Positions 19,054 to 41,051 of a DNA stretch of 64,000 nucleotides are shown one piece after another. Location: assembly GCF_058153355.1 (NCBI RefSeq), contig NZ_CM177019.1, one strand, 5' to 3'. The translations under genes were made by a program, and so were the position numbers. The notes below the pieces were generated by a model. It saw only the letters and a program-made list of their open reading frames with translations, was not told where the DNA came from and did not search any database. How positions within the stretch are numbered: position 1 is the first letter of the stretch; each line of letters opens with the position of its first letter.

Positions 19054-21201
19054 ATGAAAAAAGTCGTCACGGTTTGCCCCTATTGCGCATCAGGTTGCAA
19101 AATCAACCTGGTCGTCGATAACGGCAAAATCGTCCGGGCGGAGGCAGCGCAGGGCAAAACCAACCAGGGTACCCTGTGTCTGAAGGGGTATTATGGCTGG
19201 GATTTCATTAACGATACCCAGATCCTGACCCCGCGCCTGAAAACCCCCATGATTCGTCGCCAGCGTGGCGGCAAACTCGAACCTGTTTCCTGGGATGAGG
19301 CACTGAATTACGTTGCCGAGCGCCTGAGCGCCATCAAAGAGAAGTACGGTCCGGATGCCATCCAGACGACCGGCTCCTCGCGTGGTACGGGTAACGAAAC
19401 CAACTATGTAATGCAAAAATTTGCGCGCGCCGTTATTGGTACCAATAACGTTGACTGCTGCGCTCGCGTCTGACACGGCCCATCGGTTGCAGGTCTGCAC
19501 CAATCGGTCGGTAATGGCGCAATGAGCAATGCTATTAACGAAATTGATAATACCGATTTAGTGTTCGTTTTCGGGTACAACCCGGCGGATTCCCACCCTA
19601 TCGTGGCGAATCACGTAATTAACGCTAAACGTAACGGGGCGAAAATTATCGTCTGCGATCCGCGCAAAATTGAAACCGCGCGCATTGCTGACATGCACAT
19701 TGCACTGAAAAACGGCTCGAATATCGCGCTGTTGAATGCGATGGGCCATGTCATTATTGAAGAAAATCTGTACGACAAAGCGTTCGTCGCTTCCCGTACA
19801 GAAGGCTTTGAAGAGTATCGTAAAATCGTTGAAGGCTACACGCCGGAGTCGGTTGAAGATATCACCGGCGTCAGCGCCAGTGAGATTCGTCAGGCGGCGC
19901 GGATGTATGCCCAGGCGAAAAGCGCCGCCATCCTGTGGGGCATGGGTGTAACCCAGTTCTACCAGGGCGTGGAAACCGTGCGTTCTCTGACCAGCCTCGC
20001 GATGCTGACTGGTAACCTCGGTAAGCCGCATGCGGGTGTAAACCCGGTTCGTGGTCAAAACAACGTGCAGGGGGCCTGCGATATGGGCGCACTGCCAGAT
20101 ACTTACCCTGGCTACCAGTATGTGAAAGATCCGGCTAACCGCGAGAAATTCGCCAAAGCCTGGGGTGTAGAGAGTCTGCCTGCTCATACCGGTTATCGCA
20201 TCAGCGAGCTGCCGCACCGCGCAGCGCATGGTGAAGTGCGTGCCGCGTACATTATGGGCGAAGATCCGCTACAAACTGACGCGGAGCTGTCGGCAGTACG
20301 TAAAGCCTTTGAAGATCTGGAACTGGTCATCGTTCAGGACATCTTTATGACCAAAACCGCGTCGGCGGCGGATGTCATTTTACCGTCAACGTCGTGGGGC
20401 GAGCATGAAGGCGTGTTTACTGCGGCTGACCGTGGCTTCCAGCGTTTCTTCAAAGCAGTTGAACCGAAATGGGATCTGAAAACGGACTGGCAGATTATCA
20501 GTGAAATCGCCACCCGTATGGGTTATCCGATGCACTACAACAACACCCAGGAGATCTGGGATGAGTTGCGTCATCTGTGCCCGGATTTCTACGGTGCGAC
20601 TTACGAGAAAATGGGCGAACTGGGCTTCATTCAGTGGCCTTGTCGCGATACTTCAGATGCCGATCAGGGGACTTCTTATCTGTTTAAAGAGAAGTTTGAT
20701 ACTCCGAACGGTCTGGCGCAGTTCTTCACCTGCGACTGGGTAGCGCCAATCGACAAACTCACCGACGAGTATCCGATGGTACTGTCAACGGTGCGTGAAG
20801 TCGGTCACTACTCTTGCCGTTCGATGACCGGTAACTGTGCGGCACTGGCGGCGCTGGCTGATGAACCTGGCTACGCACAAATCAATACCGAAGACGCCAA
20901 ACGTCTGGGTATTGAAGATGAGGCATTGGTTTGGGTGCACTCGCGTAAAGGCAAAATTATCACCCGTGCGCAGGTCAGCGATCGTCCGAACAAAGGGGCG
21001 ATTTACATGACCTACCAGTGGTGGATTGGTGCCTGTAACGAGCTGGTTACCGAAAACTTAAGCCCGATTACGAAAACGCCGGAATACAAATACTGCGCCG
21101 TGCGCGTCGAGCCGATCGCCGATCAGCGCGCCGCCGAGCAGTACGTGATTGACGAGTACAACAAGTTGAAAACTCGCCTGCGCGAAGCGGCATTGGCGTA
21201 A
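19054..21201 (+). CDS. fdhF: Formate dehydrogenase H (selenocysteine-containing, molybdopterin) FdhF; in-frame UGA at 19471-19473 decoded as Sec
   Basis: Track ORFs 19054-19473 and 19522-21201 are in the same frame, separated only by a TGA; merged length is 715 aa; N-terminal Cys cluster CPYCASGC; the UGA sits in CCARV-U-HGPS and is followed by a hairpin. Confidence 0.92.
19474..19515 (+). promoter_or_regulatory. SECIS stem-loop directing selenocysteine insertion at the fdhF UGA
   Basis: Sequence immediately 3' of the TGA (CACGGCCCATCGGTTGCAGGTCTGCACCAATCGGTCGG…) can fold into the stem-loop expected for a bacterial SECIS. Confidence 0.7.
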
Positions 21202-21986: not shown

Positions 21987-22250
21987 TAGGCCTGATAAGA
22001 CGCGGTAAGCGTCGCATCAGATATTAATGTCGGATGCGGCGTAAACGCCTTATCCGACCTACAAAATCACCCTAAATCAAGCTATTGCGCAGTCTGGCGT
22101 AGGCCTGATAAGACGCGGCAAGCGTCGCATCAGGCATTGATGTCGGATGCGGCGTAAACGCCTTATCCGACCTACAAAATCACGCTAAATCAGGCTATTG
22201 CGCAGTCTGGCGTAGGCCTGATAAGACGCGGCAAGCGTCGCATCAGGCAT
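21987..22250. repeat. BIME/REP array: five REP palindromic units in alternating orientation, about 113-bp period
   Basis: Repeated units TAGGCCTGATAAGACGCGGCAAGCGTCGCATCAGGC and GTCGGATGCGGCGTAAACGCCTTATCCGACCTAC, with near-identical 113-bp repeats starting near 21987, 22100 and 22213. Confidence 0.85.
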
Positions 22251-32678: not shown

Positions 32679-32795
32679 TGCCGGATGCGATCCGGGCAAC
32701 AAGTCGGAAACGATTTGTAGGCCTGATAAGACGCGACAGCGTCGCATCAGGCATTGATTGCCGGATGCGGCGTATAACGCCTTATCCGGCCTACA
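32679..32795. repeat. REP palindromic units between acs and yjcH
   Basis: TAGGCCTGATAAGACGCGACAGCGTCGCATCAGGC and GCCGGATGCGGCGTATAACGCCTTATCCGGCCTAC. Confidence 0.8.
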
Positions 32796-38281: not shown

Positions 38282-39631
38282 TTAGATAGCCCAGCCGCCC
38301 GCATAGAAGGTCACCAGCGCCACGGCAATGACGACCGTACCGATGTTCAACTTGCGCCATTCTCCGGAAACCAGACGACCAATCACCAGAGTCGCGAAGC
38401 CGATCATAATACCCGTTACGATGTTACAGGTCAGTACGATGAATACTGCTGTTACCAGACCCGCCATCGCATCAACAAAATCAGCAAAGTCAATTTTCGC
38501 CACATTACTCAGCATCAGCAGGCCAACGTACATCAGCGCCGGAGCCGTTGCGTAACCCGGAACGAGGTAAGAGAGTGGAGAGAGGAACAGAATCAGCAGG
38601 AACAACACGCCAACGGTGATAGCCGTCAGACCGGTTTTTCCGCCCGCCGCTGTACCCGCCGCAGACTCGATGTATACCGCTGCCGGAGCTGCCCCCACCA
38701 GACCAGAGAAAACACTGCTCATGGAGTCGGTGGTCAGTGCTTTCCCGCCGTCGATAATTTGCCCGTCTTTATCCAGCAGGTTTGCCTGGCCCGCGACGGC
38801 CCGGATGGTTCCGGTGGCATCGAAAACAGCAGTCATCACCAGTGCCAGCACGCTCGGCAGAACCACAGGGTTCAGCGCGCCCATAATGTCCAGGCTGCCA
38901 ATCAGTGAATTGCCGTTTTCATCGCTCAATGAAGGCATGGCGAAAACGCCAGAGAAGTGGACGTTAGGATCGAAGATCAAACCGACAATTGAGATACCGA
39001 TAATGGTCAGCAGAATGCCACCGGGGACTTTCAGTTTTTCCAGGCCGATGATCACAGCCAGACCTACCAGTGACATAATCACCGGGAAGGTCGCGAAATC
39101 ACCCAGCGCAACAGGCAGACCATCAAGCGGGTTTTTAATCACCAGACCGACACCATTAGCAGCAATCAGCAGCAGGAACAGACCGATACCGATCCCCGTG
39201 CCGTGCGCCACACCGTGCGGCAAGTTGCGCAAAATCCAGCTACGAATACCCGTGGCAGAAATTACCGTAAACAGTACACCCATCAGGAACACGGCACCCA
39301 GCGCGACAGGTACGCTAATATGTTGCCCCAGCACCAGACTGAATGCGGTAAACGCCGTCAGGGAGATGGCGCAACCAATCGCCAACGGCAGATTAGCCCA
39401 CAGACCCATCACGATAGAACCGAGTCCGGCAACCAGACAGGTCGCAACGAAAACTGCCGCAGGCGGGAAGCCTGCTTTACCCAACATGCCTGGAACGACG
39501 ATAACCGAGTAGACCATCGCCAGAAATGTTGTTAACCCGGCAACCACTTCCTGACGGACAGAGCTTCCACGTTGTGAAATTTTAAACCAGGCGTCGAGTG
39601 AACCGCCGGTACGCGCTGATGGCGTAGACAT
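38282..39631 (-). CDS. ghxP: NCS2-family guanine/hypoxanthine permease GhxP (YjcD)
   Basis: 449-aa polytopic membrane ORF recognised as YjcD/GhxP. Confidence 0.88.
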
Positions 39632-40044
39632 AAGAAAACATCCCCTGAGAGTTTAATTTTCGTCAAGATGCGTGGCGGACATTCCCCTGCCAGCGAAACG
39701 TTATCTTCCTGTTCCAGGTTTGCGACAATTTGGTGCGTCGCAAAAAAGCAAACGTTTAGCTCCGCGCATACAAAACGGGTGGTAAAAAAAAGCAAACGAT
39801 TATCCGGCGATCATAGCGGCTTTTTCAACCGAAGTTTGCTGCTTTTTTCTCTTTTATGGTCTTGACGATGAAAAACCAGGCAATTGATGCGCAAACGTTA
39901 TCGTCGATGCGCAAGATTGCAGCGTTATCGAGCCGCATACCGTTCAGGATTGCGATAAAAAATCGTCTGAGATGACAAAAATATTGCGGCTAAAAAGCGT
40001 CCTTTTACACTGGCGAAGAAACGCCGGTGACATACAATTAAAGC

Positions 40045-40186
40045 ATCAACACCAACCGGAACCTCCACCACGTGCTCGAATGAGGTGTGTTGACGTCGGG
40101 GGAAACCCTCCTGTGTACCAGCGGGATAGAGAGAAAGACAAAGACCGGAAAACAAACTAAAGCGCCCTTGTGGCGCTTTAGTTTTG
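40045..40186 (+). ncRNA. ryjA: Small RNA RyjA (SraL), converging on the soxR 3' end
   Basis: Known K-12 sRNA location between ghxP and soxR on the strand opposite soxR; a TACAAT -10-like element near 40033-40038; ends at a hairpin TAAAGCGCC-CTTGT-GGCGCTTTA plus GTTTTGTT that overlaps the soxR stop. 5' end is approximate. Confidence 0.45.
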
Positions 40187-40642
40187 TTCATCTTCCAGCA
40201 AGCGTGCGCCTGTGCCTTCTTCTCCTAAGCAGTCGCCCGGGTTACGCAATGGGCAATCACTGCGCGAAAGGCAGCCGCAACCAATACATCCGTCCAGTTC
40301 GTCACGCAGTGCCACTAAGGTATGAATACGCCGATCCAACTCTTCTCGCCATTGGGACGAAAGCTGTTTCCACTCTTTCGCACTTAATGTATGCCCTTCG
40401 GGCAACACGCCAAACGCTTCACGAATGGTCGCCAGCGGAATGCCAATACGCTGAGCAATTTTGATGATTGCGACATATCGCAACACATCACGCTTATATC
40501 GCCGCTGATTACCGCTGTTACGAATACTGGTAATCAACCCTTTGCTTTCATAGAAATGCAGCGCCGATACCGCCACACCGCTGCGTTTTGCCACTTCGCC
40601 GGGGGTTAGCAGCGCTTTAATGCGGGGTAATTTCTTTTCCAT
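40178..40642 (-). CDS. soxR: Redox-sensing MerR-family regulator SoxR ([2Fe-2S])
   Basis: 154-aa ORF with C-terminal [12 protein letters not shown] iron-sulfur cluster motif. Confidence 0.95.
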
Positions 40643-40653
40643 AAATCGCTTTA

Positions 40654-40671
40654 CCTCAAGTTAACTTGAGG
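40654..40671. promoter_or_regulatory. SoxR operator in the soxS promoter
   Basis: Perfect 18-bp palindrome CCTCAAGTTAACTTGAGG in the 85-bp divergent soxR-soxS intergenic region. Confidence 0.85.
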
Positions 40672-40727
40672 AATTATACTCCCCAACAGATGAATTAACG
40701 AACTGAACACTGAAAAGAGGCAGATTT

Positions 40728-41051
40728 ATGTCCCATCAGAAAATTATTCAGGATCTTATCGCATGGATTGACGAGCATATTGACCAGCCGCTTAACATTG
40801 ATGTCGTCGCAAAAAAATCAGGCTATTCAAAGTGGTACTTACAGCGGATGTTCCGCACGGTGACGCATCAGACACTTGGTGATTACATTCGCCAACGCCG
40901 CCTGTTACTGGCCGCCGTTGAGTTGCGCACCACCGAGCGTCCGATTTTTGATATCGCAATGGACCTTGGTTATGTCTCGCAGCAGACTTTTTCCCGCGTT
41001 TTCCGTCGGCAGTTTGATCGCACTCCCAGCGATTATCGCCACCGCCTGTAG
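40728..41051 (+). CDS. soxS: AraC/XylS-family superoxide-response activator SoxS
   Basis: 107-aa ORF divergent from soxR; recognised SoxS sequence. Confidence 0.95.
   Translation: MSHQKIIQDLIAWIDEHIDQPLNIDVVAKKSGYSKWYLQRMFRTVTHQTLGDYIRQRRLLLAAVELRTTERPIFDIAMDLGYVSQQTFSRVFRRQFDRTPSDYRHRL

Follow-up and report, generated by a model that had tools for sequence, protein, structure and literature searches.

The small RNA gene ryjA (sraL) between ghxP and soxR in an Escherichia coli strain and the terminator hairpin that it most likely shares with soxR

SdsR, GadY and SdsN are sigma-S-dependent small RNAs (sRNAs) of enterobacteria. GadY is encoded in cis and overlaps the 3' end of gadX, and in this pair the overlap is the functional pairing region with a demonstrated effect on the mRNA. 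Full-length RNA profiling has revealed bidirectional intrinsic terminators of convergent genes across the E. coli genome. The closest described counterparts of the locus studied here are SraL of Salmonella and RyjA of E. coli K-12. SraL levels rise in stationary phase; Hfq stabilises the RNA, and ProQ associates with it (PMC3753932, PMC6315103, PMC7237705). Its RpoS dependence was established with a Salmonella rpoS mutant, a lacZ fusion and ChIP (PMC3753932), and sigma-S-type features of the sraL promoter, including an extended -10 motif TAA, have been described across enterobacteria (Silva et al., PMC3753932). A 7 + 3 bp interaction between SraL and tig was validated by compensatory mutations in Salmonella (PMC3753932), and the antitermination exerted by SraL on the rho leader has been reviewed (PMC6582626, PMC12360218). 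Salmonella, and not E. coli, is the organism in which sigma-S dependence, the repression of tig and antitermination at rho were shown. SraL decays after polyadenylation by PAP I (PMC2190706) and RyjA in E. coli does likewise (PMC5389530). A 2026 study gives E. coli ryjA its own promoter and an A at +1 (PMC12956327). According to Viegas et al. (2007), the terminators of SraL and soxR overlap (PMC2190706).

We analysed a 64-kb stretch of genomic DNA from an E. coli strain, hereafter the window, and scanned its full length with Rfam covariance models. The sraL model (RF01408) matched between ghxP and soxR with 153.3 bits (gathering threshold 39; E = 1.1e-34) and over its full length (model positions 1-142 of 142), as expected from an earlier reading of the letters alone (the sequence-only reading), which had placed ryjA here. 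With an E value of 1e-34 over a 64-kb window, the match is far beyond chance. The matched segment is identical to K-12 ryjA (b4459) at 141 of 141 positions, and the coordinates of the ncRNA annotated in K-12 MG1655 (4277926-4278066, between soxR and ghxP) map onto it exactly. The position and orientation proposed relative to ghxP and soxR are thus those of K-12 base for base, and the gene order yjcE-ghxP-ryjA-soxR-soxS-pdeC is also that of K-12. Against K-12, the intergenic DNA around the gene diverges by ~2%, and every difference in the alignment of the two strains falls in the region upstream of the -10 element; the RNA itself has none. A permissive Rfam search (E < 1) of the gap at 39550-40300 returned sraL and, on the opposite strand, its palindromic terminator, and nothing else. 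The element is therefore ryjA/sraL, an ordinary known feature and an already catalogued E. coli sRNA; K-12 annotation, Rfam and published papers all contain it, and the papers also record that its terminator overlaps that of soxR. One detail of the earlier reading needs correction. The interval 40030-40190 had been given for the sRNA; the RNA and its plus-strand placement hold from 40045 to about 40185-40189, whereas 40030-40044 is promoter and not RNA. The transcript probably reaches a few nucleotides further into the U tract than the annotated end, to about 40189. The features of the locus are listed in Table 1.

Table 1. Coordinates of features at the ghxP-ryjA-soxR locus (window positions)
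Feature	Position	Strand	Basis
ghxP ORF	38282-39631	-	ORF list
PurR-box-like motif GCGAAACGTT	~39694	+	Sequence motif
PurR-box-like motif GCAAACGTT	39748, 39891	+	Sequence motif
PurR-box-like motif GCAAACGAT	39792	+	Sequence motif
Upstream block TGCGGCTAAAAAG (-60 to -48)	39985-39997	+	Ungapped alignment of 43 upstream sequences
Degenerate -35 TGGCGA, 16-nt spacer to -10	40011-40016	+	Conserved block
-10 TACAAT (-12 to -7) and TAA (-6 to -4), sigma-S-type extended -10	40033-40041	+	Direct reading, conservation
ryjA/sraL gene, 141 nt	40045-40185	+	Rfam match, K-12 identity
5' domain closed by helix P1 (40046-40052 with 40087-40093)	40046-40093	+	4 of 7 P1 pairs compensatory (38 homologues)
tig-pairing segment CCACGUGCUCGA, sRNA nt 24-35	40068-40079	+	Sliding-window duplex scan
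Internal stem-loop (40109-40114 with 40121-40126)	40109-40126	+	3 of 6 pairs compensatory (38 homologues)
Terminator hairpin, 13-bp stem 40154-40166 / 40172-40184, 5-nt loop CTTGT	40154-40184	both	Terminator scan
Overlap of sRNA 3' end and soxR CDS, 8 nt (stop TAA and last codons)	40178-40185	both	ORF list; K-12 annotation alike
soxR CDS, 154 aa, convergent neighbour	40178-40642	-	ORF; RefSeq annotates soxR there

With RyjA/SraL as described, this copy shares length, fold, promoter layout, terminator and the position convergent on soxR, and its tig-pairing nucleotides are those of the validated Salmonella interaction. The surroundings differ: in Salmonella and many other genera a further gene separates sraL from ghxP (see also PMC3753932), and some have a spacer before soxR. 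The gap between ghxP and soxR, put at roughly 550 bp by the sequence-only reading, measures 546 bp between the ORF ends at 39631 and 40178. It was said to hold no credible plus-strand protein ORF, and we agree: the plus-strand ORFs of 62, 65, 39 and 37 aa are without a Pfam match, K-12 annotates none, and the one that overlaps the sRNA lacks conservation. Nor did the minus-strand ORFs of 87 and 88 aa or the plus-strand ORF of 125 aa antisense to soxR give a Pfam match above noise.

We scanned one genome per species for two blocks conserved in the Rfam consensus. This survey yielded 43 loci, all from Enterobacteriaceae by sequence, and an alignment of 38 distinct homologues from ~20 genera (alignment A2), in which columns 10-22 and 54-65 are invariant by construction, since the search required them. 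Of 43 other species, 42 have a convergent soxR downstream of sraL, in 39 of them no more than 50 nt from the hairpin, and in some genera ghxP lies ~1.1-1.3 kb from sraL as opposed to ~420 bp. Within E. coli, 5420 of 5426 complete genomes contain a 569-bp interval around the gene, at up to 99.6% identity. Taken alone, the sRNA reaches 99% identity or more in 5400 of the 5420 matching genomes, and the whole interval does so in 3 only, which indicates stronger constraint on the RNA than on its surroundings. The +1 nucleotide (column 1 of alignment A2) is A in Escherichia, Salmonella, most Citrobacter (Citrobacter sp. 18056 excepted) and one Enterobacter cloacae strain, and G in the remaining genera. 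Work on NAD capping, which needs an A at +1 (PMC12956327), touches on this split.

Three loci deserve separate mention. Two stand in assemblies labelled otherwise, a contig of a 'Bacillota bacterium' MAG (L022) and 'Chryseobacterium sp. 18061' (L040), and show typical enterobacterial ghxP-sraL-soxR arrangements; the GhxP and SoxR of L022 are 100% and 99% identical to the proteins of the window. Both are probably contamination or mis-binning of public assemblies. The third, from E. coli strain 405 (NZ_CM132948.1, 2501-3345 of locus L048), has an IS200C transposase gene between sraL nt 112 and soxR. This placement implies an IS200 insertion at or just before the sraL terminator, by which the body of the sRNA is parted from its terminator and from soxR, and provides a natural variant usable for testing terminator sharing.

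The sequence-only reading had pointed to a -10-like TACAAT at 40033-40038. The hexamer is present there, at -12 to -7 of the annotated 5' end, and its layout is conserved across genera. In an ungapped alignment of the upstream regions, 43 distinct sequences from Enterobacteriaceae, TAnAnT and the TAA after it are kept, and a cTGGCaAA block at -35 to -28 is strongly conserved. These promoter elements and the block at -60 to -48 are retained even in genera with a different upstream neighbour. Conservation of the promoter despite a changed distance to ghxP, or a changed neighbour, argues that the gene is an autonomous transcription unit. The -60 to -48 block may possibly be a UP-element-like A tract or a regulator site.

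We assessed the fold of the RNA by mapping the Rfam structure onto the 38 distinct homologues. Across the alignment 95.6% of cells are paired, as compared with 40-54% in controls with slid pairing partners. The paired share is 96.2% in helix P1 and 97.8% in the internal stem-loop. Compensatory double changes occur in 8 pairs, of which 4 are in P1, 3 in the stem-loop and 1 in the terminator. None of 500 shuffles attained the value observed. Not all of the model is equally well founded. Its inner helix 3 is poorly supported (78.9% paired, 0 compensatory changes), and RNAalifold favours an invariant CCUC/GAGG pairing there instead.

The 3' end of the gene is as the sequence-only reading described it, a hairpin with a U-tract overlapping the soxR stop codon: a 13-bp stem is followed on the plus strand by the tail TGTTCATCTT, and the stop TAA, the reverse complement of 40178-40180, lies in the 3' arm of the stem. 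This hairpin is the sole plus-strand terminator-like site in 39500-40800. The layout is symmetric, with an A-rich run (GGAAAACAAAC) before the hairpin and a U-rich run after it. RNA of either strand folds into the hairpin; that of the minus strand forms an equal stem followed by GUUUUCCGGUCUUUG (-34.2 kcal/mol, z = -4.4), and the sraL model gives a sub-threshold match to that strand at 40154-40189. In all 36 distinct variants of the hairpin, the 9 nt after the GC core include 6-7 T on the plus strand and 5-7 T on the minus strand, and 9 of the 13 stem pairs never vary across genera. From these features of the letters, the hairpin is most likely a bidirectional intrinsic terminator that would also end the convergent soxR mRNA. 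Like other bidirectional terminators, it is a GC-rich stem between an A tract and a U tract and sits between two convergent units. It is unlike the usual ones in that one partner is an sRNA, for which the terminator doubles as a protein-binding 3' module, and in that the stem is near-invariant across genera and contains the stop codon of the partner.

Two comparisons bear on function. SraL resembles SdsR, GadY and SdsN in stationary-phase induction, in the combination of a degenerate -35 with a strong -10 and in chaperone-assisted pairing in trans; their sequences and targets are unrelated, and SraL is in addition a ProQ ligand and acts in rho antitermination. With GadY in particular, RyjA shares its convergence on a regulator gene, its complementarity to a 3' end and the implication of RNase III. 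It is unlike GadY in that the overlap is confined to the terminator hairpin and that the validated targets (tig, rho) lie elsewhere.

For the trans targets, whole-molecule RNAduplex runs against the tig and rho leaders gave unrealistic duplexes with long loops, and we used a sliding-window scan instead. The tig pairing was computed with the K-12 leader, the strain's own tig gene lying outside the window. The segment CCACGUGCUCGA pairs with positions -30 to -18 of that leader (CCGAGCACUGUGA) through 7 + 3 bp (-16.4 kcal/mol), just upstream of the GAGG Shine-Dalgarno sequence. Because this matches the 7 + 3 bp pairing of Salmonella, the validated tig interaction is encoded in this copy. Beyond Escherichia, Salmonella and Citrobacter this segment (alignment columns 23-42) varies, so that tig regulation may not be universal. 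By analogy, we infer that the Salmonella-based functions (sigma-S, tig, rho) transfer to this E. coli strain. As the published work, mostly on Salmonella, describes it, RyjA would then be made by sigma-S RNA polymerase when cells are in stationary phase or osmotically stressed. Its 5' domain would bind the tig leader immediately before the ribosome-binding site and reduce the amount of trigger factor, and pairing with the rho leader would prevent premature Rho-dependent termination. The RNA would associate with Hfq and ProQ, and its turnover would proceed by PAP I polyadenylation followed by PNPase and the degradosome.

We are highly confident that RyjA/SraL is a ~141-nt, independently transcribed, trans-acting sRNA of Enterobacteriaceae, whose terminator is most likely bidirectional and shared with soxR through compaction. 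Other explanations of the same DNA were weighed against this one. If there were no independent sRNA, the interval would consist of the soxR terminator and non-functional intergenic DNA, with TACAAT occurring by chance. It is true that the RefSeq/PGAP records under the match list soxR only and that a sigma-70 consensus scan found no plus-strand promoter at ryjA, but the -35 is too degenerate for such a scan and we do not count its blank result against the gene. The Rfam match is full length, the K-12 ncRNA annotation is curated, the promoter elements stand at fixed spacing across genera, and covariation extends beyond the terminator to P1 and helix 6. Northern blot and reporter data come from both E. 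coli and Salmonella (PMC3753932, PMC5389530, PMC12956327). Covariation and the published transcripts already refute this explanation, which retains practically no credence. That the transcript is a dual-function RNA is very improbable. An in-frame AUG (40080-40082) and UAA (40158-40160) within it would delimit a 26-aa peptide, MRCVDVGGNPPVYQRDREKDKDRKTN, yet no Shine-Dalgarno sequence precedes the AUG, most genera have CUG or ACG in its place, and single-nucleotide indels in alignment columns 43, 82, 104 and 114 disrupt the frame. The peptide has no Pfam match, and substitutions track base-pairing and not codon structure. We also rejected the 62-aa plus-strand ORF (39972-40160) that contains the 26-aa ORF, on the same grounds of an unconserved AUG, frame-breaking indels and the lack of both a Shine-Dalgarno sequence and a Pfam match.

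A different question is whether the overlap with soxR is regulatory. RyjA could act mainly in cis, with convergent complementary transcripts across the common terminator forming a duplex or causing transcriptional interference; RNase III cleavage or altered soxR 3' ends would follow, and sigma-S would be coupled to SoxR levels. Antisense interplay with the soxR mRNA, which the sequence-only reading also drew from the overlap, is possible from the complementarity and was already raised by Viegas et al. in 2007. The hairpins and tails are perfectly complementary, with a cofold energy of -90.7 kcal/mol as compared with -55.7 kcal/mol for the separate folds, but intramolecular hairpins lock the complementary region in both RNAs (-18 to -20 kcal/mol). 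Longer SraL species appear without RNase III, and Viegas et al. suggested cleavage in the terminator (PMC2190706); the validated SraL targets are nevertheless acted on in trans. Strain DGF-298, which lacks ryjA and the last 8 soxR codons, has a constitutively active SoxS iModulon (PMC11481515), although this phenotype is confounded by the C-terminal truncation of SoxR. The unusual invariance of the stem, with its 9 fixed pairs of 13, could also speak for a role in cis. The geometry across species speaks against it: of 43 species, only 9 (Escherichia species, C. amalonaticus and two others) have the soxR stop within the hairpin; in 20 it stands 0-3 nt beyond the stem, and in 13 it is 10-513 nt off. 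In Salmonella (Salmonella diarizonae) it is 34 nt away, and in C. sedlakii the sRNA lies beside a different gene. CDS overlap is not conserved beyond Escherichia and a few Citrobacter-like lineages, and this lineage specificity argues against a conserved role in cis; overlap of the transcripts themselves would depend on where soxR mRNAs end. The hairpin is equally invariant where soxR is distant, so that soxR does not explain its conservation. In the literature that we searched, we found no experiment that asked whether the sRNA alters the mRNA or protein of soxR, and a search for RIL-seq chimeras of RyjA/SraL with soxR returned nothing usable. On balance we regard a mainly cis-acting RyjA as unlikely. 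A more specific proposal, that the invariant symmetric terminator is itself a regulatory device through which stationary-phase sraL transcription or a duplex would alter soxR 3' ends, soxR stability or SraL decay, strikes us as distinctly unlikely, and so does the involvement of an RNase III substrate duplex with complementary 5-nt loops that it would entail. If true, such a device would link the set-point at which superoxide is sensed with the general stress response. Sharing of the terminator is best read as genome compaction around the terminator of the sRNA and not as a dedicated antisense circuit.

The C. sedlakii locus (strain NBRC 105722, positions 698-1742 of locus L024) carries sraL, and soxR is absent from the 1.6 kb of DNA examined downstream. 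An unannotated 303-aa ORF converges on the sRNA and ends in the hairpin in the place of soxR. It terminates at 1609, ~10 nt inside the sRNA extract (1599-1742, which includes 6 nt past the stem). From its length and N-terminal sequence, the product is a putative LysR-like protein.

Where the stop codon is within the hairpin, SoxR aligns to residue 154; in most other lineages it aligns to residues 151-152. This suggests a short C-terminal extension of SoxR into the hairpin, which in the window would correspond to the C-terminus encoded at 40178-40201. C-terminal truncations of SoxR are a classic class of constitutive soxR alleles. SoxR truncation is a plausible cause of the SoxS activity in DGF-298; the authors of that work dismissed it (PMC11481515). 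Deletion of ryjA by genome engineers necessarily clips soxR, as the 8 codons lost from DGF-298 illustrate (PMC11481515).

Several other features of the window were recorded. PurR-box-like motifs cluster upstream of ghxP at 39692-39905, every one of them on the plus strand. Two of the boxes lie within a 17-19-nt direct repeat (AAAAAAGCAAACGTTTA / ...GATTA), 44 bp apart, and the exact motif GCAAACGTT has only one further copy in the 64-kb window. For the region upstream of ghxP, an iModulon analysis has predicted a PurR motif (PMC6892915). The best sigma-70-like promoter of the gap is on the minus strand at 39799-39828 (TTGAAA-18-GATAAT, 10 of 12 matches). From this match it is a candidate ghxP promoter, whose leader of ~160 nt would span two PurR-like boxes. 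Elsewhere, Rfam SECIS_2 matched the plus strand at 19466-19520 with 87.9 bits (threshold 70) and a perfect consensus match, presumably the selenocysteine insertion element of fdhF. Three matches to naRNA4 (RF02564; 68-79 bits), at 21989-22172 and 32720-32791 on the minus strand, are intergenic repeats of the REP/BIME type.

The conserved terminator belongs to the sRNA and its overlap with soxR varies by lineage, which lowers the prior for an antisense circuit between the two. As RefSeq/PGAP records list soxR alone at this place, the sRNA is easily missed, and the main value of the finding is the correct annotation of ryjA.
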